Shown here: positions 2,844 to 36,925 of the stretch, in pieces | Numbering within the stretch: the stretch's first letter is position 1 | How the letters are laid out: every line of letters begins with the position of its first letter | Source: Gammaproteobacteria bacterium | Lineage (GTDB): Bacteria > Pseudomonadota > Gammaproteobacteria > Ga0077536 | Reading direction: 5' to 3' | Length of the DNA stretch: 64,000 bases | NCBI GenBank assembly: GCA_041984235.1 | Contig: JBHIYN010000001.1 | Coordinates: 164,985-228,984, forward strand | The notes under the pieces: model-generated | Told to the model about the DNA's origin: nothing | Seen by the model: only the letters and a program-made list of their open reading frames with translations | The model's database searches: none | Translations under genes and position numbers: made by a program

Positions 2844-4002
2844 GGTGTCGCCGTCGCAGGTGCCGGACCCGGCGGAGGACCCCTGGGCCACGCCCGATGA
2901 GGCGCTGGTCGAGGCAGCCGCCGGCGGCGAGCGTCTGGTCGCCAGCATTCGGCTCTACTACTACCTGGTGCTGTCGCTGGTTCCGGTGGCGCTGCTGCTG
3001 TCGCTGCCGGGTGCGCCGGGCTACGTGTGGATCTCGCTCACCGTCGCGCTCGTCTCGGTGGCGCTCAGCTTCGTGCTCAAGGGTGTCGCCGAGCGCGGCG
3101 TGCGCGTGCCCGGGATCGCCATCGCGACCACGCTCTACGACATCGTCGCGGTCAGCACCGTGCTGGTGCTGGTGGCGCTGACCGGGCGGCCGCTGGTCGC
3201 CGCCAACAGCCAGGTGCTGTGGGGCGTCTACCTGCTGCTGATCGCGATGACCAGCATTCGTTTCGACCTGCGCCTGTGCCTGCTGGCCGGGCTCGCGAGC
3301 AGTGTGACCTACGGCCTGGTGGTGGCCTGGATCGCGACCACCTGGGACCTCGTATCGCTCGGTGAGAGCGACCCGGGCTACGCGGGCTTCGGCTGGGCGA
3401 CCCAGTTCGGGCGCATCGTGCTGATGATGGTCGCGACCGCGCTCGCCGCCGGCATGATCGCGCGCTCGCGCCGTCTGATCGCCGCCTCCGGCACCGACCG
3501 CCTGACCGGGCTCGCCAATCGCGCGCTGTTCGAGCAGCGCCTGTTCGCGGAGATCGCGCGCGTCGAGCGGCGCGGTGGAATGCTCGCGCTCGCGTTCATC
3601 GATCTCGATCACTTCAAGGAGTTCAACGATCGTTACGGGCATGCTACGGGAGACGCCGCGCTGCGCGCCGTGGCCCACGCGTTTGCCGGCGAGGTCCGCG
3701 CTGAGGACGTGCTGGCGCGCTGGGGCGGCGAGGAGTTCGTGCTGGTCATGCCGGGCACGCGGGCGGCGCAGGCGGTCAGCCTGCTCGAGCGCGTACGGCG
3801 CACCCTGCGCGATACGCGTCTGGGCGCCGCCGACGCGCGCGGTCTCGGCTTCAGCGCCGGCCTCGCCGAGTATCCCGCCGACGGCCCCGGCGCGCACGCG
3901 CTGCTCGAGGCCGCGGACCGGCGCATGATCGAGGCCAAGCGCAGCGGGCGCGATCGCACGGTACTGCCGTCGTCGCCCGCTGCGCAGGACGGCGGCGCCT
4001 GA
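2806..4002 (+). CDS. membrane-anchored diguanylate cyclase (GGDEF domain)
   Basis: Multiple N-terminal transmembrane helices precede a C-terminal GGDEF domain ('RYGHATGDAALRAV', 'RWGGEEFVLVMPG'). The start is uncertain: the ATG at 2806 overlaps the NMO gene, and a GTG at about 2845 is an alternative. Confidence 0.7.
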   Translation: MPPTNDSEPSSTRVSPSQVPDPAEDPWATPDEALVEAAAGGERLVASIRLYYYLVLSLVPVALLLSLPGAPGYVWISLTVALVSVALSFVLKGVAERGVRVPGIAIATTLYDIVAVSTVLVLVALTGRPLVAANSQVLWGVYLLLIAMTSIRFDLRLCLLAGLASSVTYGLVVAWIATTWDLVSLGESDPGYAGFGWATQFGRIVLMMVATALAAGMIARSRRLIAASGTDRLTGLANRALFEQRLFAEIARVERRGGMLALAFIDLDHFKEFNDRYGHATGDAALRAVAHAFAGEVRAEDVLARWGGEEFVLVMPGTRAAQAVSLLERVRRTLRDTRLGAADARGLGFSAGLAEYPADGPGAHALLEAADRRMIEAKRSGRDRTVLPSSPAAQDGGA

Positions 4003-22353: not shown

Positions 22354-24642
22354 TTACTTGCCGTCGAGCGCCTTGAGCAGCTTGGGCGGCGAGATCGGCA
22401 GGTCCGCCAGGCGCACGCCGGTGGCGCGTGACACGGCGTTGGCGACCGCCGCCAGCGGCGGAACGATGGGCACCTCGCCGACGCCGCGCACGCCATAGGG
22501 ATGGCCCGGGTTGGGCACCTCGACCAGCACGGTGTCGATCATCGGCAGGTCGGAAGCGACCGGCACGCGATAGTCGAGGAAGCCGGTGTTCTGCAGCCGC
22601 CCTTCGGCGTCGTAGACGTACTCCTCGTTCAGCGCCCAGCCGATGCCCTGCACGGCGCCGCCCTGCAACTGGCCTTCGACGTAGCTCGGGTGGATGGCCT
22701 TGCCGACGTCCTGGATCGCGGTGTAGCGCAGGATGGTGACGCGGCCGGTCTCCGGATCGACCTCGACGTCGCAGATGTGCGTGCCGAAGCCGGGACCGGC
22801 GCCGTGGGCGTTGATGTTGGCCTTGCCGGAAATCGCACCGCCGGTCTTGTCCGCCATCGCCGCGATGTCGGCGATCGAGAGCGGCTTGTGCTGCTCGGTC
22901 TCAATGCAGCGCGCCTCGCCGTTCTCCCATTCGACCTGGTCGAGGTCGACGTCCCAGATCTTGGCGGCGCGCCGGCGCATGTCGTTGACCGCGTCCTGCG
23001 CGGCCTCGATCACGGCCTTGCCGGTGGCGAAGGTGACGCGCGAGCCGCCGGTCAGCATGGAGAAGGGCACGGACTCGGTGTCCGCCACCAGCGGCTTGAT
23101 GCGGGCGACGTCGATACCGAGCACCTCGGCCGCCATCAGCGCCATGGAGGCACGCGAGCCGCCGATGTCCGGGTTGCCGGTGGCCACGATCACGGTGCCG
23201 TCCTCGTTGACCATGACCTCGGCGCTGGAGGTGCCGCCGATGTTGAACCAGAAACCCGAAGCGATGCCGCGACCCTGGTTCGGCCCCAGCGGCGCGCTCC
23301 AGTGCGGGTGGTCCTTCGCCGCTTCCAGCGTTTCCTTGTACCCGATGCGGCCGAACTTGACGCCGTAGGGCGCCTGCGTGCCTTCCACCGCGGCGTTCTT
23401 CATGCGCAGCTCCAGCGGGTCCATGCCGAGCTGCTGGGCGAGCTCGTCGAGCGCCGACTCGACCGCGAACGCGGCGACCGGCGCGCCGGGTGCACGGTAG
23501 GCGGCGGCCTTGGGCCGGTTGACGACCACGTCCCAGCCGACGCAGGAGACGTCGGTAAGGTTGTACGGCGCGAAGCCGGTCATGCAGCCAAGCGCGACCG
23601 GCGAGCCGGCGAAGGCGCCGGCCTCGTACTCCATCTCGAGCTCGCCCGCGACCAGGGTGCCGTCCTTCTTCGCGCCGATCCTGGCGCGTGCATGGCCGCC
23701 CGAGGTCGGCCCGGTAGCGCGCATGACCTCGTCGCGGGTCATTACCATCTTCACCGGGCGCCCCGCCTGCTTGGCGAGCATGACCGCCAACGGCTCCAGG
23801 TAAACGACGGTCTTGCCGCCGAAGCCGCCGCCGATCTCGGCCGGGATGACCTTGATCCGCGCGGTCTCCATGCCGCACATCTTGGCGACGTAGGCGCGCA
23901 CCATGAACTGGCCCTGGCTGGAGCACCAGATGGTGACCTGGCCGTCGGCCGCGATCGAGGCGACGCAGGCGTGCGGCTCGATGTAGCCCTGGTGCACGGT
24001 CTGGGTGGTGAAGTCGCGCTCGACGATGACGTCGGCCTTGGCGAAGGCCTTGTCCGGGTCGCCGAGGCGGAACTCGGCGCGGTTGGCCACGTTGGAAGCC
24101 TTTTTCGGTTTCGGCTCCACGCCGCCGGTGAACATGTCCTTGTGCAGCACGGGCGCGTTCTTCTTCATCGCCTCGGCCGCGGTCATGACCGGCTTGAGCA
24201 CTTCGTACTCGACCTCGATCAGTTCGGCGGCGCGCTCCGCGATCTGCGGCGAGGTGGCGGCGACGGCCGCGACCGCGTGCCCGTCGTAGAGCACCTTGTC
24301 ACGCGCGATGGTGTTGCGCGACATGTCGTAGAAGCTGACCACCACTTCGCCGACCGCCTTGTCGGACGGGTCGAGCTGCGGCAGGTCCTGCCCGGTGATG
24401 ACGGCTTTCACGCCCTTGAGGCGCAGGGCCTTGTCGATGTTGATCTTCTTGATCTTCGCGTGCGCATGCGGGCTGCGCACGACCTTGCCCCAGATCATGC
24501 CGTTGACTTCGAAATCGGCACCGAAGTTGGCGCGGCCGGTGACCTTGTCGGCGCCGTCCGGTCGCACCGGGCGGGTACCGATGTGGCGGAACTCGCGGCC
24601 GCTGTAATCGATGATCTTCTGGATGTCTTCTTCGTTACCCAT
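22354..24642 (-). CDS. xanthine dehydrogenase / aldehyde oxidase family molybdopterin-binding large subunit (CoxL-like)
   Basis: A 762-aa protein with a typical a/b-hammerhead N-terminus ('VRPDGADKVTGRANFGADF'). The active-site-loop region reads 'AAYRAPGAP', not the 'VAYRCSFR' of form I CO dehydrogenase. Confidence 0.85.
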   Translation of the reverse strand: MGNEEDIQKIIDYSGREFRHIGTRPVRPDGADKVTGRANFGADFEVNGMIWGKVVRSPHAHAKIKKINIDKALRLKGVKAVITGQDLPQLDPSDKAVGEVVVSFYDMSRNTIARDKVLYDGHAVAAVAATSPQIAERAAELIEVEYEVLKPVMTAAEAMKKNAPVLHKDMFTGGVEPKPKKASNVANRAEFRLGDPDKAFAKADVIVERDFTTQTVHQGYIEPHACVASIAADGQVTIWCSSQGQFMVRAYVAKMCGMETARIKVIPAEIGGGFGGKTVVYLEPLAVMLAKQAGRPVKMVMTRDEVMRATGPTSGGHARARIGAKKDGTLVAGELEMEYEAGAFAGSPVALGCMTGFAPYNLTDVSCVGWDVVVNRPKAAAYRAPGAPVAAFAVESALDELAQQLGMDPLELRMKNAAVEGTQAPYGVKFGRIGYKETLEAAKDHPHWSAPLGPNQGRGIASGFWFNIGGTSSAEVMVNEDGTVIVATGNPDIGGSRASMALMAAEVLGIDVARIKPLVADTESVPFSMLTGGSRVTFATGKAVIEAAQDAVNDMRRRAAKIWDVDLDQVEWENGEARCIETEQHKPLSIADIAAMADKTGGAISGKANINAHGAGPGFGTHICDVEVDPETGRVTILRYTAIQDVGKAIHPSYVEGQLQGGAVQGIGWALNEEYVYDAEGRLQNTGFLDYRVPVASDLPMIDTVLVEVPNPGHPYGVRGVGEVPIVPPLAAVANAVSRATGVRLADLPISPPKLLKALDGK

Positions 24643-24645
24643 CGC

Positions 24646-25122
24646 TCATGCTCCTCGCATTTCAGCCGCGGCGTTCATGACCGCGCGAATGATCTTGTCG
24701 TAGCCGGTGCAGCGGCACAGGTTGCCGGCGAGCCAGTAGCGCGCCTCGGTCTCGGTCGGGTCCGGGTTCGCCTCGAGCAGCGCCTTGGCGGCGACGATGA
24801 AGCCCGGCGTGCAGATACCGCACTGCAGGCCGGCTTCCTCGAGGAAGTGACGCTGCACCGGGTGCAGCTCCTCGCCCTCGGCGACGCCTTCGATGGTCTC
24901 GATGCTGGCGCCCTCGGCCTCGGCACCGAGCACCAGGCAGGAACAGACCAGGCGTCCGTTCATCATGATGCTGCACGCGCCGCAGTCGCCCGAAGCGCAG
25001 CCCTCCTTGCTGCCGGTCAGGCCGAGTTCGTCACGCAGGCAGTCGAGCAGGGTCTGCTCGGTGTCGCACAGGAACTCGGCCGGGTCGCCGTTGATGGTCG
25101 TGGTGACGTGATGTTTGGCCAT
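24646..25122 (-). CDS. (2Fe-2S)-binding small subunit of a Mo hydroxylase (CoxS-like)
   Basis: Two [2Fe-2S] cysteine clusters are present: 'CASGDCGACSIMMNGRLVCSC' and 'CGICTPG...CRCTGY'. Confidence 0.9.
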   Translation of the reverse strand: MAKHHVTTTINGDPAEFLCDTEQTLLDCLRDELGLTGSKEGCASGDCGACSIMMNGRLVCSCLVLGAEAEGASIETIEGVAEGEELHPVQRHFLEEAGLQCGICTPGFIVAAKALLEANPDPTETEARYWLAGNLCRCTGYDKIIRAVMNAAAEMRGA

Positions 25123-25137
25123 GTCTCGGGATGCTCC

Positions 25138-26007
25138 TTATGCGCCGCGCGCGCGTTCGAGTGCAATCAGCGCCGCGCGGCGCGCCAGCACGCCGGCGAC
25201 GCGGGTGCGGTACTCGGCAGTGCCGCGCTTGTCGTCGATCGGCTTGCACGCGGCGCTGGCCGCGGCGGCCAGGGCGGCCAGCGCGTCGTCGTCCAGCGTG
25301 GTGCCGATGATGGCCTTCGCCGCTTCCTTGACCAGCAGCGGGCGCGGCGCGACCGCGCCCAGGGCGACGCGTGCGTCGGACACCACGCCCTTGGCGTCCA
25401 GGGTCAGGCTGACCGCGGCGCCGACCACGGCGATGTCCATCTCGGTGCGCGGGATGAAGCGCAGGTAGGCATCGCCCGAGCGCCGCGGGCGCTTGGGCAG
25501 GAAGAAGCTGACCACGAACTCGCCTTTCTTCAGCGAGGTCTTGCCCGGGCCGGTGACGATGTCCTCGACCTTGGCGGTGCGCGTGCCCTTGGCGCCGGCG
25601 ATCTTGCAGGTCGCGCCGGCCGCGATCAGGCCCGGTACGCTGTCGGCGGCGGGTGAGCCATTGCACAGGTTGCCGCCGAGCGAGGCGCGGCCCTGGATCT
25701 GGGTCGAGCCGATCAGCTCGAGTCCCTCGACCACGCCGGGCCAGGCCTTGCGCACCGCCTTGTTGGCGCCGAGCTCGGCACCCGACACGGCAGCGCCGAT
25801 ACGGAAGCCGTTCTTCTCGCGTTTGACCTCGCGCAGCTCGGGTATGTGCTTGATGTCGACGATGAGGCCGGGGCGGGTACGCCCGGCGCGCAATTGCACG
25901 AGGAGGTCGGTCCCTCCCGCGAGCACCTTGGCCTTGCCCTTGGCGCCGGACAGCGTGCGTACGGCTTCACGCACGGTCTGCGGCGCAGCGAATTGAATTT
26001 CTGCCAC
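25138..26007 (-). CDS. FAD-binding medium subunit of a Mo hydroxylase (CoxM-like)
   Basis: FAD-binding PCMH-type motifs 'VLAGGTDLLVQL' and 'ASLGGNLCNGSPAADS' are present. Confidence 0.85.
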   Translation of the reverse strand: MAEIQFAAPQTVREAVRTLSGAKGKAKVLAGGTDLLVQLRAGRTRPGLIVDIKHIPELREVKREKNGFRIGAAVSGAELGANKAVRKAWPGVVEGLELIGSTQIQGRASLGGNLCNGSPAADSVPGLIAAGATCKIAGAKGTRTAKVEDIVTGPGKTSLKKGEFVVSFFLPKRPRRSGDAYLRFIPRTEMDIAVVGAAVSLTLDAKGVVSDARVALGAVAPRPLLVKEAAKAIIGTTLDDDALAALAAAASAACKPIDDKRGTAEYRTRVAGVLARRAALIALERARGA

Positions 26008-26114
26008 GTTCCCCTCGATCCAGACGATTGACGAAGCCTCCTATCTTACACACCTTCGATGACGGCGACAGATGCAAAGCCGTGCATATCCGCGGCCGTT
26101 CGGCGGGCCTGCGC

Positions 26115-28442
26115 TCAGCCCGGCAGGCCGAGCACGCCCTTGGCGATGATGTTGCGCTGGATCTCGTTCGAGCCGCCGTAGATCGTCGCCGGCCGTGCGT
26201 TGTAGAACTGGCTGAGGACGTCCACCGTCTCGTGACCGAAGGCGAGCGCGCCGGGCGTCGCGCCGTCGGCGGCGGCCGCCTCGACCATCAGCTCGGACAG
26301 CCGCGCGAAGGTCTCGGTGCCCCAGATCTTGAGCAGCGACACGTCCGGACCCAGCGTGTCGCCGCGGCGCACGATGTCGGCGAACACCTGGTAGGTCGAC
26401 TCCAGGTCCAGCACGTCGAGCTTGAGCCGCACGAGGCGATCGCGGAAGGCGCCGTCGTCGAGCATCCCGGCGCCGGCGGCGAGCGCTTCGAGGCGCATCA
26501 GGGCGTACTGCGACTGCTTGGGGCTGCCGATGAAGATACGCTCGAAACCGAGCAGGGCCTTGGCGATGGTCCAGCCCTGGTTGATCTCGCCGACCAGGCA
26601 ATCCGCCGGCACGCGCACGTCGTCGAGGAACACCTCGCAGAACTCCTCGTGTCCGGCGATGTTGCGAATCGGGCGTATGGTCACCCCCGGCTGGTCGAAG
26701 TCGATGAGGAAGAAGCTGATGCCGGCCTGCGGCTTGCCTTCCCTGGAAGTGCGCGCGAGGCAGAACATGTGGGTCGCGTCCTGCGCCAGCGTGGTCCAGG
26801 TCTTCTGCCCGTTGATCACGAACTCGTCGCCATCGGCAACGGCCTCGGTCTTGAGGCTGGCGAGGTCGGAGCCGGCATTCGGTTCCGAGTAGCCCTGGCA
26901 CCACACGGCGTCGCCGGACAGGATCTGCGGCAGGTATCTCGCGCGCTGCTCGGCGGTACCGTGGCGTATGAGCAGCGGGCCGACCATCTGGATACCCATG
27001 TCGGGTGCGCGGCCGACGCCCCAGCGCTCCTGCTCCTCGATGAAGATGAGCAGCTTCGACGGCGACAGGCCCATGCCGCCATGCTCCGCCGGCCACGCCG
27101 GCGCCACCCAGCCCTTCGCCGAGAGCTTCAGGTACCACGGCTTGATGTCGGACCAGCGCAGGCGTTCCGAGGGATAGCGCAGCTCGGGCGGGTACTCGGA
27201 CTCGAAGAAGCGGCGCACCAGCATGCGAAAGGTCTCGTCGTCGATGCTGTCCCACTCGCCGTTGGCGGGCTCCGCGGTAGTGGTGAGCGTAGCCGGCGCG
27301 CGCTCGCCGCTCTCCGCGCCGAGCAGGCTGGCCAGGCGGGTCGCGTGGAAGCTCGCGTTGCCGTGGCGTGCGGCCAGCACCAGCGCGCGGTTGAGATACA
27401 GGCCGACGTCGCACTCGTCGGTGTAACCGATGCCGCCGTGCAGCTGCACGGCCTGGCGGGTCAGCAGCAGCGCCGTCTCGCTGGCGCGGTACTTGGCGCG
27501 GCTCGCGGCCCGCGCGCGCGCCTCGGCCGAGACCGCGGCGTCGTAGTCGGCGAGTGCCTCGTCGAGCACTGCGCCGGCGATGGTCTTGTGGATGAAGAGG
27601 TCGACCGCGCGGTGCTGCAGGGCCTGGAAGCTGCCGATCGGGCGGCCGAACTGCTCGCGGGTCTTGAGGTAGTCCAGGGTGATGTCGAAGATGCGCTCGC
27701 TCAGGCCGACCAGGTAGGCGGCGCTGCCGAGGCGTGCCAGCGCGCGTGCGTCGGCCAGCGCGTCGGCCGCGGCGTCGCCGCGCGCGAGCAGGGCGCCGGC
27801 GTCGACCGCGGCCTGCTCCAGGATCAGCGTGGCGCTGCTGGTGCCGTCACTCTGGGTGCGGGATTCGACGCGCACGCGCGCGTGGTCGGTGGCGACCAGG
27901 AACAGGGCGGGAGCCGTGTCGAGCACGGCTTCGACCACGACGTGGTCCAGCGCCTCGGCCAGGGCCACGCCGCGCACTCGCCCGTCGAGCAGGTAGCCGT
28001 CGCGCTGCGGCGTTGCCAGCAGGGGCGGAATGCCGCCGGCGAACTCACCGGCCTCGGCCAGCGCGGCGCCGATCAGGGTCTCGCCGTGAAAGAGGTCACG
28101 CAGCAGCACGCCGTCGCGGTCCAGCGCCGCGAGCAGGCCGCAGGCGGCGACACCGCATTCGAGCATCGGCTCGGGCGCTACCACGCGGCCCAGCTCGCGG
28201 CACACCGCGCCCGCCGCCTGGGCGCCGAGATCGAGCCCGCCGGCGGTCTCCGGTGCGAGGATGCCGGCCCAGCCGAGCTCGCACATCTCGCGCCACGCAC
28301 CGCGGTCGAACGGCGGCGCCGCGCCGCGCAGTGCACGCAGGCGTTCCACGCCGAGACTGCGTGCGCAGAAGTCGGCGGCGCTGTCACGCAGCATGTCGAT
28401 GGTCTCGAGGTCCACCGCGGGGCGGCGCAGGGCTTCGCTCAT
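26115..28442 (-). CDS. fused two-domain acyl-CoA dehydrogenase (776 aa)
   Basis: Two consecutive ACAD-like units are present. The second has canonical 'QGYSEPNAGSDLASL' and 'TIYGGSNEIQRNIIAK'. The start is at 'MSEALRRPAV' with a GGAGAC SD. The remainder of track ORF 26115..29822 is antisense to the hydratase gene. Confidence 0.75.
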   Translation of the reverse strand: MSEALRRPAVDLETIDMLRDSAADFCARSLGVERLRALRGAAPPFDRGAWREMCELGWAGILAPETAGGLDLGAQAAGAVCRELGRVVAPEPMLECGVAACGLLAALDRDGVLLRDLFHGETLIGAALAEAGEFAGGIPPLLATPQRDGYLLDGRVRGVALAEALDHVVVEAVLDTAPALFLVATDHARVRVESRTQSDGTSSATLILEQAAVDAGALLARGDAAADALADARALARLGSAAYLVGLSERIFDITLDYLKTREQFGRPIGSFQALQHRAVDLFIHKTIAGAVLDEALADYDAAVSAEARARAASRAKYRASETALLLTRQAVQLHGGIGYTDECDVGLYLNRALVLAARHGNASFHATRLASLLGAESGERAPATLTTTAEPANGEWDSIDDETFRMLVRRFFESEYPPELRYPSERLRWSDIKPWYLKLSAKGWVAPAWPAEHGGMGLSPSKLLIFIEEQERWGVGRAPDMGIQMVGPLLIRHGTAEQRARYLPQILSGDAVWCQGYSEPNAGSDLASLKTEAVADGDEFVINGQKTWTTLAQDATHMFCLARTSREGKPQAGISFFLIDFDQPGVTIRPIRNIAGHEEFCEVFLDDVRVPADCLVGEINQGWTIAKALLGFERIFIGSPKQSQYALMRLEALAAGAGMLDDGAFRDRLVRLKLDVLDLESTYQVFADIVRRGDTLGPDVSLLKIWGTETFARLSELMVEAAAADGATPGALAFGHETVDVLSQFYNARPATIYGGSNEIQRNIIAKGVLGLPG

Positions 28443-28574: not shown

Positions 28575-29351
28575 ATGAAGCCTGAACTGGTCAAGCTCGA
28601 CGTGGTCGAGGATTTCGTGGCGGTGGTGACGCTGGACAACCCGCCGGTCAACGCGCACAGCCAGCGCCTGCTCGAAGAGGTGGCCTGGACCTTCGACACC
28701 GTCAGCGACCGCGAGGACATCCGCGCCGCGGTGCTGACCGGTGCCGGCAAGTGCTTCTGTGCCGGCGCCGACATCAAGGAACGCGTCGGGCGCACGCCGC
28801 AGCCGGGCGACCACTGGCAGAACAGTCGCCGCGCCCGCGAGGCTTACCACAGCATCATGGAGTGCCGTAAGCCGGTCATCGCCGCGATCAACGGCCCGGC
28901 GCTGGGCGGCGGGCTGGCGCTCGCGGCCTCCTGCGACATCCTGCTGGCGAGCGAGGACGGCTGCCTGGGTCTGCCCGAGATCAACGTCGGCCTGCTGGGC
29001 GGCGGCCGCCACAGCCAGCGCCTGTTCGGGCATTCGCGCCTGCGCCGCATGATGCTCACCGGCATGCGCCTGTTCGGACCCGAGCTGTACCGCCTGGGCG
29101 TGGTCGAGGCGTGCACCGCGCCGGACGCGCTGATGGACGAGGCGCTCGCGATCGCCCGCGAGATCGCGGCCAAGAGCCCCGTCGCAAGCGTGCTCGCCAA
29201 GCACGCGCTCAACCAGATCGAGGAGATGACGCTGCGCGACGGCTACCGCTTCGAGCAGACCATGACCGGCGAGCTCGGCAAGACCGAGGACTCGAAGGAA
29301 GCGATGCGCGCGTTCGTGGAGAAACGCACGCCGCAATTCAAGGGCCGCTGA
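28575..29351 (+). CDS. enoyl-CoA hydratase/isomerase
   Basis: 'VLTGAGKCFCAGADIKE' and 'AAINGPALGGGLALAASCDILLAS' are present. A GAGGGGA SD precedes the ATG. It is divergent from the fused ACAD. Confidence 0.85.
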   Translation: MKPELVKLDVVEDFVAVVTLDNPPVNAHSQRLLEEVAWTFDTVSDREDIRAAVLTGAGKCFCAGADIKERVGRTPQPGDHWQNSRRAREAYHSIMECRKPVIAAINGPALGGGLALAASCDILLASEDGCLGLPEINVGLLGGGRHSQRLFGHSRLRRMMLTGMRLFGPELYRLGVVEACTAPDALMDEALAIAREIAAKSPVASVLAKHALNQIEEMTLRDGYRFEQTMTGELGKTEDSKEAMRAFVEKRTPQFKGR

Positions 29352-29381
29352 GCAGGCCGTACCCCTCCGGGAGAACCGTCC

Positions 29382-29909
29382 ATGAGTATCGAATTCGTCG
29401 ACCCACGTGGCGAGACACGGCGCGCCGCGCAAGCCTATGAACATGTCCTCGACGTCACCGTGCCGGCGACCATCGGCCTGCTGGCCAACGGCTTTCCCGA
29501 CTCGGTCGCGTTCCTGGACGCGGTCGAGGTCGCTCTGGGCGAGGCGCTGCCGCAGGCGAGCTTCCGCCGCTACGCCAAGCCGGGCGCCTCGGCGCCGGCC
29601 GACAGCGCGCTGGTCGCCCGCATCGCGGCCGAGTGCGATGCGCTGGTGACCGCCTACGGGCACTGAGGCAGCTGCACATCCGGCACCGTGCGTGACGGCA
29701 TTGCACTGGCCCGCGAGGGGCGCCCGGCGGTGGCCTTCGTGACCACCAAGTTCGAGCCGCAGGGCGACTTCGTCGCCCGCGCCGAGGGCATGCCCGACGT
29801 GCCTCGCGTGATCGTGCCGCACCCGGTGGCCGGCATCGGTGCTGCCGCCATGGCCGCGCTGGCGCGCGACATCGCCGTCACCGTGGTCGAACGGCTGCGC
29901 GCCGGATGA
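29382..29909 (+). CDS. UGSC-motif selenoprotein; TGA at 29664..29666 read as selenocysteine
   Basis: Track ORFs 29382..29666 and 29688..29909 are in the same frame, separated only by one TGA. Read-through gives '...AYGH-U-GSC-TSGTVRDGIALAREG...'. There is a GGAGAA SD before 29382. The gene is co-oriented with selA and selB downstream, and tRNA-Sec is present in the window. Confidence 0.75.
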
Positions 29910-30973
29910 GCGCGCTGCTCAGCGCGGCCGATGCCGATGCCGCACTCGAGCGACTGCACGCCCTGCGCTGCACGGACGGCCTGCCGGTGGTCATTCCGAC
30001 CCCCGAGCGCGTCTCGCGGCTGGTGCTCGCGAGCGGGCTGGACGCCGACATCGAGCTCGGCGTGATGGGGCCGGGTTATGGCGTCGCCACCGTGGAGAAG
30101 GTTGCCGCCTGCGCGGTCATGGCCGGCTGCCTGCCCGACCACATGCCGGTGGTCGCGGCCGCCGTGCGCGCGGTGTGCCGGCCCGAGTTCGATCTCACCG
30201 AGATGCAGTGCACCACGCATGCCATCGCACCGCTGGTCGTGGTCAACGGTCCGGCGCGCGCGGCCGGCGGCTTCGCCTCCGGCTTCGGGCTGATGGGGCC
30301 CGGCCACCGCGCCAACGCCAGCGTCGGCCGCGCCCTGCGCCTGGCCATGATCAACATCGGCGGCGCGCGCCCGGGCGAATCCGACATGGCCATCCACGGC
30401 TCGCCGGCCAAGTTCTCGCTGTGCTTTGCCGAGGACGAGGCGGCCTCGCCCTTCGCGCCGCTGCACACGACCTTCGGCTACGCGCCCGGCGACAGCGCGG
30501 TCATGGTGCTCGGCGTCGAGGGCCCGCACTCGGTGCTGTTCAGCGGCGATGCCGGCGATAGCGCGTCGGCCGAGGCCCTGCTCGACACCCTGGCCGCGGT
30601 GATCGCCAATCGCGGCAGCAACAACTCCTACCTCGGCGGCCGCGCCGCGGTCGCGCTGGTGCTCAATCCCGAGCATGCCGCGATCCTGGCCGGGGCCGGT
30701 CATGGCCGCGAGTCCGTGCAGCAGGAGCTCGCCGCGCGCGCGGTGACCCCGCGCGAAATCCTGCAGCGCCTCAATCCGAAGATGCTGCAGGGCGAGGAAG
30801 CCCTGATCCCGGCAGTGCGCGATCCGGCCCGGGTGCACCTGATGGTGGCCGGCGCGCCCGGCCTGTACTCGGTCGTGATGCCGTCGTGGTGTGCCGGGCC
30901 ACACGGCAACGTCGCGGTGCACGCGGCGGTCGAGCTGGACCCGTACTGCGAATTACCCACGGCCTCCCGCTGA
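29906..30973 (+). CDS. conserved hypothetical protein (355 aa), translationally coupled to the UGSC selenoprotein
   Basis: A long intact ORF whose start overlaps the upstream stop by 4 nt (ATGA). Family not recognised from sequence; it is not SelD-like. Confidence 0.55.
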   Translation: MSALLSAADADAALERLHALRCTDGLPVVIPTPERVSRLVLASGLDADIELGVMGPGYGVATVEKVAACAVMAGCLPDHMPVVAAAVRAVCRPEFDLTEMQCTTHAIAPLVVVNGPARAAGGFASGFGLMGPGHRANASVGRALRLAMINIGGARPGESDMAIHGSPAKFSLCFAEDEAASPFAPLHTTFGYAPGDSAVMVLGVEGPHSVLFSGDAGDSASAEALLDTLAAVIANRGSNNSYLGGRAAVALVLNPEHAAILAGAGHGRESVQQELAARAVTPREILQRLNPKMLQGEEALIPAVRDPARVHLMVAGAPGLYSVVMPSWCAGPHGNVAVHAAVELDPYCELPTASR

Positions 30974-31040: not shown

Positions 31041-32129
31041 ATGTCCGATCTGTATGCCGACGCCGCGGTCACGGTACGCGAGGATCTCGCCGCCGCGCAC
31101 GCGCGCAGCCTGGCCAGTTTTAGCGCGCCGGGAACCTGGTTCGACGGCGCGACCCGCGCCGGCCTGGCCGGCGAGGCGCGGCAGGCCCGCGCAGAGGCCG
31201 GCCTGCAGCCGGGCACGCCGCCGACGGAGGGGGGCGGCGCGGTGCCCGCGGCCGCCGCGCGCGTGGTCCGGCGGATTGCCGCCGACCCGACCGACCTCGA
31301 TCGCAGCCTGTTCGACGATGCCTGCGCCGAGGGTCTGAGCGAGGAAGAGTACGTCGAATGCGTCGGCATTGCCGCGCGCATCAGTAACCTCGACATGTTC
31401 GCGCGCGGCCTCGGCGTCGCACCGCGGCCGCTGCCGCCGGTCAGCGCCGGCGAGCCGAGCCGACGGCGTCCGGCCGCGGCGGTCGCGGAGGGCGCCTGGG
31501 TGGCGACGATCCCCAACGGTGAGGCCGGCGGCGCCGAGGGTGCCGCGCTCTACGGCGGGCAGTGGGCGGCCAACATCCTGCGCGCGCTCAGCCTGGTGCC
31601 CGCCGAAGCCGCGGACCTGATTGCCTTGGGCGACGTGCAGTACGTCTCGGTGGCCAACTTCATGGACTTCGGCTACTCGCACGACCCGGCCATCTCGCGG
31701 CAGCAGGTCGAACTGGTGGCGGCGCGCATCTCCGCGCTCAACGCCTGCTTCTACTGAACCTCCTGGCATGTGCAGCTGCTCCGTGCGAGCGGCCAGTCGG
31801 GACAGAAGACTTACGAACTGAAAGGGGTTACCGATCGTGCGCTCGCTATCGGCGTGGACGACGAGGACGTCTTGCTGGCCTTCGCCGACGCGGTCTTCGG
31901 CGGGCCGCAGGCTGCGCTCGACGCGGCGCGCAGCGCGCTGCGCCATCGCCTGGGTGACGGCGGCCTGGTCGAGGCCGCGATCACCGCGGCGAATTTCAGC
32001 CTGGTCGATCGCGTCGCCAACAGCATCGGTATTCCGCTCGATGGCATGGCCATCGAGCAGACGGCCGATTTTCGCGAACCGCTCGGCATCAACCGCTTCC
32101 CTTCGGCGCGCAATACGCTCGGCGGCTGA
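31041..32129 (+). CDS. AhpD/carboxymuconolactone-decarboxylase-like selenoprotein (CxxUxxxH); TGA at 31755..31757 read as selenocysteine
   Basis: Track ORFs 31002..31757 and 31770..32129 share a frame and are separated by one TGA. Read-through gives 'NA-C-F-Y-U-T-S-W-H', matching the AhpD core CxxCxxxH motif with Sec in place of the second Cys. A 'ggggggagaa' SD precedes the ATG at 31041. selA lies immediately downstream. Confidence 0.75.
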
Positions 32130-32159: not shown

Positions 32160-33584
32160 GTGAGCGACGGCGCCGAGGCCAACGCGGCGCTGCGGGCGGT
32201 GCCGTCGATCGACGAGTTGCTGCGCGGTGCCGATGCCGCCCGCCTGGTCGATGCCTGGGGCCGCGAAGCGGTCGTCGCGGCCTTGCGCGAAGCGGCCGAC
32301 GCGGCGCGCGCGGCACTCGCCGGGGGCGCTGCGGCGGCGCGTGCGCAGGCGTCGGCGGAGGCCCTGGTCGCGGACGCGGCCGCCCGCCTCGCGGCGCTGA
32401 TGGCGCCGGCGCTGAAGCCGGTGTTCAACCTCACCGGCACGGTGCTGCACACCAATCTCGGACGCGCGCCGCTGCCGGCCGAGGCGATCGCGGCGATGAG
32501 CGCGGCGGCCGGTGCCAGCAACCTCGAGTACGACCTCTCGACGGGACGCCGCGGCGATCGCGATGCGCTGGTCGAGGACTGGATCTGCCGCCTCACCGGG
32601 GCCGAGGCGGCGACCGTGGTCAACAACAACGCCGCCGCCGTGCTGCTGCTGCTGAACACGCTCGCGCGGCGCCGCGAGGTGCCCGTGTCGCGCGGCGAGC
32701 TGGTCGAGATCGGCGGCGCCTTCCGTATTCCCGACGTCATGGCGCGGGCCGGCAGCAAGCTGGTCGAGGTCGGTACGACCAACCGTACCCATGCGCGTGA
32801 TTTCGAGGACGCGCTCGGTGCGCGCAGCGCGCTGCTCATGAAGGTGCATACCAGTAACTACGTGGTCGAGGGTTTCACCGCCGCGGTCGCCGAGCCCGAG
32901 CTGGCGCGCATCGCGCATGCAGCCGGTGTGCCGTTCGTGGTCGATCTCGGCAGTGGCACGCTGACCGACCTGTCGCGCTTCGGCCTGCCGCGCGAGCAGA
33001 CCGTCGCCGAGACCCTGGCCAATGGCGCCGACCTGGTGACCTTCAGCGGTGACAAGCTGCTCGGCGGCCCGCAGTGCGGCATCATCGCGGGGCGCGCCGA
33101 TCTCGTGCGCCGCATCAAGAAGAACCCGATGAAGCGCGCCCTGCGCGTGGACAAGATCACGCTCGCCGCGCTGGGCGCGGTGCTGCGCCTGTACGGCGAT
33201 CCCGCACGCCTGCCCGAACGCCTGCCGGCGCTGCGCCTGCTGACCCGCGACGAGGCCGACATCCGCGCCGCTGCCGAGCGGCTGCTGCAGCCGCTGCGTG
33301 CGGCACTGGGCGCTGCCGCGACGGTCGACGTCGTCGCCTGTCGCAGCCAGATCGGCAGCGGCGCCCTGCCGGTCGACCTGTTGCCGAGCGCCGCGCTGCG
33401 CATCACGCCGCCGGGCCGGCGCGGGCGGGCACCGGAGCGGCTGGCCGCACGCCTGCGCGCGCTGCCGCTGCCGGTCATCGGTCGCATCGCGGACGGCGCC
33501 GTGCTGCTCGACCTGCGCTGCCTGGACGACGAGGCCGGATTCGTCGACCAGCTGGCGCTGCTGGGCGAGGGTGAAGCGCCGTGA
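32160..33584 (+). CDS. selA: L-seryl-tRNA(Sec) selenium transferase
   Basis: The PLP-lysine region '[20 protein letters not shown]', '[15 protein letters not shown]' and the N-terminal 'VPSIDELLR' are present. The start is GTG. Confidence 0.9.
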
Positions 33585-35494
33585 TCGTCGCCACCGCCGG
33601 CCACGTCGATCATGGCAAGACGCTGCTGGTGCGGGCGCTCACCGGTGTGGACACCGACCGCCTGCCGGAGGAGAAGCAGCGCGGACTGACCATAGAGCTC
33701 GGCTTCGCCTACCACGATCTCGGCGACGGCGAGATCACCGGCTTCATCGACGTGCCCGGCCACGAGCGCTTCATTCGTACCATGATCGCCGGTGCCAGCG
33801 GCATCGACGTGGTGCTGTTCATCGTCGCCGCGGACGACGGCCCGATGCCGCAGACCGCGGAGCATCTCGCGATCCTCGACCTGCTGGGGGTGCAGCGCGG
33901 GGTGGTCGCATTGACCAAGGTCGACCGGGTCGACGACGCGCGCCTGCAGGCGGTTACCGTCGAGTGCCGCCGCCTGTTCGAACCGACGCCGCTGGCGATG
34001 GCTCCGATCGTACCCGTTTCGGCGCTCGAAGGCCGCGGCATCGATCTGCTGCGCGAGGTGCTGCTGAAGCTCTCCGCCGAGGTGCCGCCGCGTGTGGTCG
34101 CAGGCAATTTCCGCCTCGCCATCGATCGCAGCTTCCTGCTCAAGGGCGCCGGACGGGTGGTGACCGGCACCGTCTTCTCCGGGCAGGTCGGCGTCGGCGA
34201 GGCGGTGTGTCACGTCCCGGGCGGCGAGAGCGTGCGGGTGCGCGGCATCCACGCCCAGAACCACGAGGCGGAGTCGGCCGGCGCCGGCCTGCGCACCGCG
34301 CTCAACCTGGCCGGCAGCGGGCTGCGCGACGGCGATCTGCATCGCGGTGACTGGATCGTCGCTGACGGCGCCGCGTTCTCCACCCGCCGGCTCGACGCCA
34401 TGCTGCGCGTGCTGCCGGGGGAGAGCCGGGCGCTGCGCAATCGCACCCCGGTGCACGTGCACGTCGGCGCCGCCGACGTCACCGGCCGCGTCGTGACCTT
34501 CGACGGCAAGGCCATAGAGCCCGGCGCGGAGGCGCCGGTGCAGTTGCTGCTCGACCGCGAGCTGCACGCGGTCCACGGCGACCGCATCGTGCTGCGCGAC
34601 CAGTCGGCGCGGCGTACCCTGGGCGGCGGCACGGTCATCGATCCGGTGCCCGACGTCCGCGGCCGCTCGCGCAGCGAGCGCGTACGTTACCGTGAAGCGA
34701 TGTCGTGTGACGACCCGGCCGCGGCCCTGGACGCGGCCCTGGCGGCGCTCCCCGACGGCATCGAGCTCGATCGCTTCAGTCGCTGCTGGAATCTTACCGC
34801 CGCGGAGGCCGAGGCACTGTTCGCGCGCAGCGCGATGGTGCGCGTCGACCGCGGCGACGTGCGGCTCGGTTTCGAGCCGGCGCGCTGGCAGGCCCTGCAG
34901 GACATGCTGCCGCCGGCGGTGGCGGCGGTTCATGCCGAGGCGCCCGACCGCCCCGGTGCCAGCGAGGCCGAGATCAACCGCAAGCTGCCCGAGCGCCTGC
35001 GTCCCGCACTGCTCGCGCTGCTCGTCGAACAGCTCGTCGCGGCCGGTACCCTGGAACGCAACGGCGCCGTGGTGCGCGTGCCCGGTCACGCTGTGCAGCG
35101 CTCGCCGGCCGACGAGAAGCTGTGGCGGCGGGTCGGGCCGATCCTCGAAAAGGCCGCGTTGAAGGCGCCGGTGGTGCATGACCTGCACGAGGCGCTGCAC
35201 ATCGACCTCAAGCTGCTGGAGGGTTTCCTCGGGCGCTCTGCGCAGCAGGGTTACCTGGTGCGCGTGAGCGCCAAGCGTTACTTCCTGCCGGACAGCATGC
35301 GCACTTTCGAGACCATCGTGCTGGAGCTTGCGCGCACCCAGCCGGATGGCGTATTCACCGTTGCCGATTTTCGTAACCGCGCCGGCATCGGCCGCAATGC
35401 GGTGGTCGAGATCCTGGAATACTTCGACCGCGTCGGCCTGACCCGGCGCCACGGCCAGGTGCGCCGGGTCGTCGGCACGCCCACCCATCTCTGA
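33581..35494 (+). CDS. selB: selenocysteine-specific translation elongation factor
   Basis: The GTPase G1 motif '[16 protein letters not shown]', 'DVPGHERFI' and the long C-terminal winged-helix extension are present. It overlaps selA by 4 nt (GTGA). Confidence 0.9.
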
Positions 35495-35508: not shown

Positions 35509-36747
35509 ATGAGTACGAGTATCAGCGTGGACACCGCCGCCGGACGTGTCGAGGGGCATTGCGATACGCGCTTCGCCGCCGTCGCCGACGCCTTCGTCGC
35601 CAATTTCGAACAACGCGACGAAGTCGGCGCGAGCTGCGCGATCACGCTCGAGGGTGAGACCGTGGTCGACCTGTGGGGCGGACGTATCACGCGTGGCGGC
35701 GAGGCCTGGCAGCGCGACACGCTGTGCACCGTGTTCTCCTCGACCAAGGGTGCGATGGCGCTCTGCGCGCACATGCTCGCCGATCGCGGCAAGCTCGATC
35801 TCGATGCCCTGGTGACCGATTACTGGCCCGAGTTCGGGACCGGCGGCAAGGAAGGCGCGCGGGTGAAGATGACGCTGGACCACAGCGTCGGCGTGCCTCA
35901 CGTGCGCGACGCGGTGCCGCCCGGCGGCTTCTACGATTACGACGCCATGGTTGCGCGGATTGCCGCCGAGCCGGCTTTCTGGGAGCCCGGCACGCGCGGT
36001 GGCTACCACGCCATCAGCATGGCCTGGACGGTCGGCGAGCTGGTGCACCGCGCGGCCGGCCAGCGTCTCGGTGCGTTCTTCGACGCGCAGGTGGCGAAGC
36101 CGCTCGGCATCGACTTCTGGATCGGGGCGCCGGCGACGGTCGAGGATCGTATCTCGCCGATGATCCCGGCCGAGCCCGACGAGCCCTGGCTCGCGACCCG
36201 CTTCATCCAGGCCGCGCTCGGCGCCGAGCAGAACCCGACGCAGCTCTTCATGCGCGACTTCCTGCTGGTCGACGCCAACGACCCGGCCTGTCACCAGGCC
36301 GAGATCGGCTCGGCCAACGGCGTCACCAACGCGCGCGGCCTGGCCGGCATGTACGCGCCGCTGGCCAACGGCGGGGCGCTCGGCGGCACGCACCTGGTCG
36401 GCGCGGACACGCTGGCACGCATGGGCCGGGTCAGCATGGCTTCGCACGACGACGCCACGCTGCTGATCCCGACCCGCTTCGCGCTCGGCTACATGAAGAG
36501 CACGGACAATCGCCGCGTGCCGAACACGGTCAACGCCAGCCTGCTCGCCGGCGAGTCAGCCTTCGGCCACGTCGGCGCCGGCGGCTCGCTCGGGCTCGCC
36601 GACCCGGAATGCGCGATGAGCTTCGGTTACGCCATGAACCGCATGGGCACCGGGCTGCTGATGAACGAGCGCGGGCAGTCGCTGCTCGACGCCGCTTACC
36701 GTGCGCTCGGCTATCGCTCTGACGCCAGCGGGGCGTGGCGCACCTGA
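35509..36747 (+). CDS. serine hydrolase, class C beta-lactamase/esterase family
   Basis: The S-x-x-K motif 'FSSTKG' and a fold-typical sequence are present. It starts 14 nt after selB. Confidence 0.75.
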   Translation: MSTSISVDTAAGRVEGHCDTRFAAVADAFVANFEQRDEVGASCAITLEGETVVDLWGGRITRGGEAWQRDTLCTVFSSTKGAMALCAHMLADRGKLDLDALVTDYWPEFGTGGKEGARVKMTLDHSVGVPHVRDAVPPGGFYDYDAMVARIAAEPAFWEPGTRGGYHAISMAWTVGELVHRAAGQRLGAFFDAQVAKPLGIDFWIGAPATVEDRISPMIPAEPDEPWLATRFIQAALGAEQNPTQLFMRDFLLVDANDPACHQAEIGSANGVTNARGLAGMYAPLANGGALGGTHLVGADTLARMGRVSMASHDDATLLIPTRFALGYMKSTDNRRVPNTVNASLLAGESAFGHVGAGGSLGLADPECAMSFGYAMNRMGTGLLMNERGQSLLDAAYRALGYRSDASGAWRT

Positions 36748-36829: not shown

Positions 36830-36925
36830 GGAAGAGCATCGCCACCCGGTGGGGCGCCCGGTCTTCAAAACCGGTGAGACGGCCGCAGGGTCGTCTGGCA
36901 GGTTCGACTCCTGCCTCTTTCGCCA
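36830..36925 (+). tRNA. selC: tRNA-Sec (anticodon UCA)
   Basis: The 96-nt sequence is 'GGAAGAGC...GGTCTTCAAAACC...GCAGGTTCGACTCCTGC...CTCTTTCGCCA'. The anticodon loop is 'CUUCAAA' with anticodon UCA. It has a long variable arm and an extended acceptor, and the T-arm is identical to E. coli selC from memory. Confidence 0.85.

Follow-up and report, generated by a model that had tools for sequence, protein, structure and literature searches.

The window analysed here is a stretch of 64,000 nucleotides (nt) from a Gammaproteobacteria bacterium (assembly GCA_041984235.1, contig JBHIYN010000001.1, positions 164,985 to 228,984 of the forward strand), and all coordinates below are counted from its first letter. 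At 29382..29909 it carries a gene of the UGSC family whose reading frame is interrupted by one in-frame TGA and which is reported in lists of open reading frames (ORFs) as two separate pieces. An earlier note on this DNA had proposed that the two pieces form one selenoprotein of 175 amino acids (aa) rather than two genes or a pseudogene. The family match, the alternation of selenocysteine (Sec) and Cys codons among homologues, and a hairpin that is specific to the TGA-containing forms all bear this proposal out, and we consider it very probable that 29382..29909 is a single UGSC-family selenoprotein gene that is decoded through the selenocysteine insertion sequence (SECIS) described below. The features of the gene and of its transcript are the following, with the basis of each given in brackets.

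29382..29909, + strand: UGSC-family selenoprotein, very probably a single coding sequence of 175 residues with Sec at residue 95 and Cys at residue 98 (one frame with one internal TGA, Pfam PF24696 match, and G+C content at third codon positions, GC3)
29369..29374, + strand: Shine-Dalgarno-like GGGAGA, 8 nt before the ATG (read from the sequence)
29664..29666, + strand: in-frame UGA, predicted to be read as Sec (aligned to an invariant Cys column; TGA shared with 111 related sequences)
29680..29698, + strand: predicted apical SECIS hairpin CCG-G-CAC[CGUGC]GUG-A-CGG, loop at 29687-29691 (synonymous freeze in Sec forms, pairing, covariance model)
29669..29708, + strand: hairpin as predicted for this genome over its full length, composed of a lower stem (CAG.UGCA / UGCA.CUG) and the apical element (minimum-energy fold)

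The upstream ORF (29382..29666, ATG start, 94 aa) closes at the TGA at 29664-29666, and the downstream ORF (29688..29909) shares its frame, since the distance between the two starting positions (29688-29382) is 306 nt, or 102 codons. The 21 nt that separate the two ORFs (29667..29687) are in frame and free of stops, and translation of 29382..29909 yields 175 residues and a stop (the terminal TGA at 29907-29909) with only one internal stop; the splitting of one frame by the TGA at 29664..29666, as previously noted, is thereby confirmed. Around the TGA the read-through product is ...ALVTAYGH*GSCTSGTVRDGIALAREG..., in which the motif reads ...VTAYGH*GSCTSGTVRDG..., i.e. AYGH-U-GSCTSGTVRD. The UGA thus directly precedes Gly-Ser-Cys, again as the earlier note had it, and falls on a column that is an invariant Cys in the homologues. 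The N-terminus (MSIEFVDP) lines up with the N-termini of homologues, and GC3 in the shared frame is 0.87 for the first half and 0.89 for the second, in a genome context of 70% GC. In public gene calls for this contig (NCBI GCA_041987945.1, JBHIVR010000002.1), two genes of 94 and 73 aa are listed, each of which matches PF24696. The same N-terminal product has been recorded from 11 contigs, and the four locations given for it belong to four different samples; a sequencing error is unlikely in a sequence that has been recovered so many times.

With U changed to C, the read-through product matches the Pfam model of the UGSC family (PF24696) at 159.2 bits against a gathering cut-off of 25, residues 5-172 covering profile positions 2-170 of 172, and it also matches the NCBIfam model NF041046, 'UGSC family (seleno)protein', with E = 4e-33, such that the search against family models suggested in the earlier note returns the expected family over practically the entire chain. 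UGSC-containing proteins are a recognised bacterial selenoprotein family, in agreement with the earlier note (PMC2398784, PMC13188914, PMC9312934). The family was first reported from the Sargasso Sea and Global Ocean Sampling (GOS) selenoproteomes, where it is among the five most abundant GOS families, is described with a UxxC motif, is counted at 255 Sec versus 21 Cys forms, and is also mentioned as a fusion to a domain named 'Unknown_1' (PMC2398784). Reviews of 2022 and 2026 list it with NF041046 and the reference sequence ABI76733.1 and call the functions of such families uncharacterised (PMC9312934, PMC13188914). The window gene resembles this family in its full-length profile match, in the position of U-G-S-C at the invariant column and in having both Sec and Cys homologues; nothing essential is different, the window copy standing in one string with selA, selB and tRNA-Sec in a genome of 70% GC.

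A search of 5.8 billion proteins gave 141 relatives, the classes of which were counted among the 120 listed. About 90 of the matches listed are full-length (168-224 aa), all with G-H-C-G-S-C at the motif, and about 25 of them are fragments (96-122 aa) whose last residues are exactly ...AYGH. The residues G93, C95, G96, S97 and C98 are invariant across 30 aligned full-length homologues, and the window TGA lies on column 95. Sec forms were collected at the DNA level by scanning metagenome contigs with the TGA-containing pattern TAYGGNCAYTGAGGNWSNTGYAC, which is present in at least 120 stretches; as judged by hmmsearch with the alignment profile, 118 of the 120 listed TAYGGNCAYTGAGGNWSNTGYAC stretches are UGSC-family genes, and in these, given a contig of sufficient length, the TGA is followed by some 80 codons that are open and conserved. 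The listed metagenome Sec forms are diverse, being only 41-71% identical to the window protein. Cys forms were taken from a scan of genome contigs with a pattern around the Cys codon (AxGHCGSCT), which returns Cys forms only, and were used as the negative control. The resulting codon alignment at the Sec site holds 111 distinct TGA forms and 22 TGY (TGC/TGT) forms, and the UGA/TGC alternation for which a comparison of orthologues had been recommended is therefore present at this very codon.

This alternation of Sec and Cys excludes both a pair of genes and a private nonsense mutation. The former reading, in which 94-aa and 73-aa products are encoded by two independent small genes and the second starts at GTG 29688, takes its support from the mechanical ORF lists and public calls, which do show such a pair, and from the match of each piece to PF24696. 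However, the 21 nt supposed to be intergenic encode in frame the motif GSCTSGT, which is better conserved than any other in the family, all Cys homologues are unbroken single chains of 175-200 aa, and a Cys homologue is modelled as a single compact domain that extends over both halves, with a predicted local distance difference test (pLDDT) score of 95.9. Moreover, no homologue was found in which the second half has an independent, conserved N-terminus, which is one of the observations that the earlier note had named as fatal to its own proposal. We accord the two-gene reading next to no probability.

The codon alignment also reveals a constraint on the nucleotides themselves. Among the 111 TGA forms, the six codons at +5 to +10 from the TGA (window 29679..29696; aCC GGC ACC GTG CGT GAC, encoding T/S-G-T-V-R-D) have a synonymous entropy of ~0, with GGC used in 110/111 sequences, ACC in 109/111, GTG in 110/111, CGT in 110/110 and GAC in 111/111; in the same forms, the synonymous entropy of the flanking codons is 1-2 bits. 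The six codons at +5 to +10 vary freely in the 22 Cys forms, where Arg is encoded by CGC in 13 of 14 cases. The amino acids at these positions vary in the Cys forms as well (e.g. SSATRD, AGTVKD, SGVVHD), where G, T, V and R are each found in 11-14 of the 22 sequences and D is invariant, whereas G-T-V-R-D is fixed at 110-111 of 111 in the Sec forms. A synonymous freeze in the TGA forms together with free variation in the Cys forms indicates that the constraint acts on the RNA, and only where the codon is UGA. It appears that this RNA element constrains the evolution of the UGSC protein, six amino acids being held fixed.

The constrained block folds into the apical hairpin listed above, the stem of which is paired in 99.2% of cells across 109 sequences, with one pair changing from C-G to U-A in eight of them, and the same set shows no variation at the G and U of the loop (alignment columns 28 and 29). 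A covariance model built from 41 Sec forms, with the window left out, gives the window site 70.1 bits (E = 1.7e-19) and three further Sec forms that it had not seen 67.6-70.0 bits, as opposed to 10-42 bits for the 22 homologous Cys-form sites. A stem-loop behind the UGA, for which the earlier note had asked, is accordingly found, and its conservation at the nucleotide level is confined to TGA forms.

These comparisons bear directly on the possibility that the window holds a Cys-type UGSC gene in decay after a nonsense mutation from TGC to TGA. A single base change would suffice for this, Cys-type homologues are common in named genomes, and public callers break the gene in two. Against such decay, the frame of the second half is still open, its sequence is conserved as in the rest of the family and its GC3 is 0.89, no frameshifts or extra stops are seen in the second half of close relatives, the same TGA is shared by more than 110 distinct relatives, and the Sec machinery adjoins the gene. 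In addition, the window has exactly the codon-locked SECIS block that only TGA forms possess, including CGT for the Arg that Cys forms encode by CGC, and the SECIS model gives 70 bits versus 42 or less for the Cys forms. We consider a decaying pseudogene to be extremely unlikely.

Consensus criteria for bacterial SECIS (bSECIS) elements comprise a loop of 3-9 nt, an upper stem of 4-16 base pairs (bp), a distance of 16-37 nt from the UGA to the loop and a minimum free energy of at most -7.5 kcal/mol, with a G in the first two loop positions that is usually followed by G or U (PMC13188914). In the window, the loop CGUGC has 5 nt and carries G and U at its positions 2 and 3, the upper stem is of 6 bp (3+3 around a G.A mismatch), the loop begins at 29687 after a distance of 20 nt from the UGA (29667..29686), and the minimum-energy fold of 29664..29712 has -16.3 kcal/mol. 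As in established bacterial SECIS/SelB recoding (E. coli fdhF and the bSECIS model, PMC13188914), the hairpin follows closely on the 3' side of the UGA, within the coding region, and has a small apical loop with G-U, its spacing, stem length and free energy are inside the limits of the model, and the SelB encoded nearby has winged-helix domains. The UGSC element differs in being held unusually constant over an entire protein family and in locking six amino acids that are variable in the Cys forms. To our knowledge, its primary sequence is unrelated to that of the fdhF element. Judged from sequence comparison, the hairpin at 29680..29698 is a predicted SECIS that would bind SelB and permit read-through of the UGA.

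The components required for such decoding are located 2-7 kb downstream of the UGSC gene, where the earlier note had rightly placed selA, selB and tRNA-Sec in the same gene string:

32160..33584, + strand: selA, selenocysteine synthase (Pfam SelA, 512.6 bits, and Se-cys_synth_N)
33581..35494, + strand: selB, Sec-specific elongation factor with SECIS-binding winged-helix domains (Pfam GTP_EFTU, Beta-barrel_SelB, SelB-wing_2 and SelB-wing_3)
36830..36925, + strand: tRNA-Sec, anticodon UCA (ARAGORN; Rfam RF01852, 62.6 bits versus a gathering score of 47)

The string UGSC(TGA) - 355-aa gene - (optional gene) - selA - selB - tRNA-Sec recurs with different flanks in four further genomes (L153, L154, L155 and L087). 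Among loci with enough sequence, selA is next to UGSC in 4 of 36 with a Sec form, and it is so placed in 0 of 17 with a Cys form, which makes this linkage specific to the clade of the window. Within that clade (five genomes), the Sec machinery appears to travel with its UGSC client gene.

Several observations weigh against the reading of 29382..29909 as one selenoprotein gene decoded through this hairpin. The folding energy, which lies well inside the bSECIS limit, is yet no better than that of shuffled sequence in the 70% GC context (z = +0.3 to +0.6); thermodynamics alone is thus no proof, and comparative analysis was used in its place. The conserved stem is short, with 6 near-invariant pairs around a G.A mismatch and covariation from a single pair only. 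The register of the lower stem is specific to the window, 37.5% of cells being paired in it across the family, and this stem was rejected as a family-wide feature. RNAalifold favoured another pairing of 5 bp, between alignment columns 13-17 and 28-32, which was rejected in turn as it leaves the invariant columns 33-38 unexplained, is without compensatory change and competes with the 99%-paired hairpin. The score with NF041046 (114.4 bits) is below the listed cut-off of 125; three entries that NCBI itself names 'UGSC family (seleno)protein' score 102.7 (P0025), 89.8 (P0048) and 104.9 (P0052), and because such named proteins reach only ~90-105 bits the cut-off was treated as uninformative in the library copy used. 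Insertion of Sec at the UGA at 29664-29666 is itself something that we infer from the standard bacterial pathway. Finally, the SelD motif G-[C/U]-G-[C/A]-K is absent from the six-frame translation of the 64-kb window.

The last of these points is also the one that favours a third alternative, in which the gene is of the Sec type, but its UGA acts mostly as a stop or is decoded by a different tRNA, either with selenophosphate synthetase missing or with selenium limiting, and a truncated or non-Sec product dominates. The efficiency of Sec insertion in bacteria indeed depends on selenium supply. On the other hand, the search for selD covered 64 kb of the genome only, selA, selB and tRNA-Sec are intact and kept beside the gene in five genomes, and the cluster retains two selenoprotein genes whose SECIS loops match. 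A predominantly terminating UGA is, in our estimate, very unlikely.

For a single UGSC gene decoded through its SECIS, which is the reading that we prefer, the sequence of events would be that of the standard bacterial pathway. On arrival of the ribosome at the UGA at 29664-29666, SelB and Sec-tRNA(Sec) would be held on the mRNA by the SECIS hairpin a few nt downstream (apical element 29680..29698, loop CGUGC); SelB would hand over selenocysteine, termination would be avoided and translation would continue to the stop at 29907-29909. The product would be a small alpha/beta protein with Sec95-Gly-Ser-Cys98 at the junction of a beta-strand and a helix, and it would work with the 355-aa protein that is encoded by the overlapping next gene.

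Two further genes lie between the UGSC gene and selA, the first being this partner and the second a selenoprotein candidate in its own right:

29906..30973, + strand: 355-aa partner gene, its ATG overlapping the UGSC stop (ATGA)
31041..32129, + strand: second selenoprotein gene, AhpD-related, CFY-U-T, TGA at 31755-31757 (NF041238 match of both halves, translation, downstream hairpin)

The partner is found directly downstream of UGSC in every locus with room for it, be it of the Sec or the Cys form. Its family has more than 4,600 database matches with a mean column identity of 75% and many invariant His and Cys residues, and its best named relatives are in Gammaproteobacteria metagenome-assembled genomes. 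Library scans (Pfam to E 10) and a PDB profile search gave no Pfam, NCBIfam or PDB sequence match for it. Remote relatives were similarly elusive for UGSC itself, for which a Pfam scan at E values up to 10 gave weak, inconsistent matches, including DUF1638 in 9 of 35 UGSC sequences (best E = 0.027), and a PDB profile search gave nothing consistent.

The fold of UGSC was considered from the AlphaFold model of a Cys homologue (P0001) that is of equal length and 55% identical to the window protein. The model (pLDDT 95.9) is a single compact domain across both halves with five beta-alpha units in sequence, and residue 95 is located between a strand (87-93) and a helix (96-111). A thioredoxin-like fold was suggested for UGSC earlier (PMC2398784); the arrangement in the model is not that of a thioredoxin, and the fold of UGSC is predicted to be flavodoxin/Rossmann-like instead. 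Other UxxC or CxxU redox selenoproteins (thioredoxin-like, peroxiredoxin-like, PrdB and AhpD-like; GOS Table 2, PMC2398784) are comparable in that Sec has a Cys partner at a distance of two residues, Cys homologues exist and a redox role is presumed, but no sequence relationship to UGSC was detected in the Pfam scan to E 10, the predicted fold of UGSC differs, and UGSC has an obligate neighbour in the gene of the 355-aa partner.

Redox-active UxxC pairs usually have the Sec where a helix begins and the Cys one turn further along. As residues 95 and 98 conform to this geometry in the model, the Sec95-Gly-Ser-Cys98 pair probably cycles between the selenol/thiol and selenenylsulfide states. UGSC and the 355-aa protein most likely act together as a two-protein redox system; that they constitute an obligate two-protein redox enzyme is a more tentative idea, possible but in our view rather doubtful. 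The presence of UGSC and its partner in a self-contained island with selA, selB and tRNA-Sec in one gammaproteobacterial clade suggests that the pair is a main reason why these bacteria keep Sec decoding.

The AhpD-related gene is split by callers in the same manner as UGSC, with ORFs at 31041..31757 (238 aa) and 31770..32129 (119 aa) in one frame that reads ...NACFY-U-TSW... across the TGA. The halves match NCBIfam NF041238, 'alkylhydroperoxidase-related (seleno)protein, CFYUT', at profile positions 1-238 and 245-356, respectively. A hairpin follows this second Sec codon as well (31775..31793, GCUGCUC[CGUGC]GAGCGGC), and its loop, CGUGC closed by a C-G pair, is identical to that of the UGSC hairpin (29684..29694), the offset of the loop from the UGA being 24 nt in the AhpD-related gene versus 20 nt in UGSC. 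The shared CGUGC loop may be the recognition motif of the SelB of this organism. A third candidate Sec codon, the TGA at 1772 with a CGTGC loop 22 nt downstream, was rejected, as it translates to an Arg/Pro/Ala-rich wrong-frame sequence. L153 has all of the upstream synteny of the window, but the AhpD-related gene is missing there. L155 has, at 3276..3791 on the minus strand, two adjoining short AhpC-TSA/Redoxin calls (86 and 62 aa) that resemble a peroxiredoxin-type selenoprotein split at a UGA.

The window gene is a new, mis-split member of a known selenoprotein family, and its recoding mechanism is the standard bacterial one; knowledge of selenocysteine decoding itself is unchanged by these results. 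What does change is the annotation. On this contig, and in many relatives, UGSC is split into two 'hypothetical' fragments, as is the AhpD-related neighbour, and once the fragments are joined, both the proteins and the selenoproteome counts become correct. For UGSC, which is among the most abundant aquatic selenoprotein families and is uncharacterised in function, the family-wide SECIS signature, the strictly linked partner gene and the predicted flavodoxin/Rossmann-like fold offer handles for further work.

Other genes surround the cluster. Between selB and tRNA-Sec is a 412-aa beta-lactamase-fold esterase (35509..36747, + strand; LipL-like, 207 bits), which keeps this position in L153. Upstream of the UGSC cluster are an enoyl-CoA hydratase gene (28575..29351, + strand) and, on the minus strand at 22354..28442, a three-subunit molybdoenzyme of the xanthine-dehydrogenase/CO-dehydrogenase type (molybdenum cofactor subunit of 762 aa, 2Fe-2S subunit of 158 aa and flavin adenine dinucleotide subunit of 289 aa) together with a double acyl-CoA dehydrogenase of 775 aa. 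Comparable molybdoenzyme and hydratase surroundings are seen near a distant Sec-form UGSC (L030).
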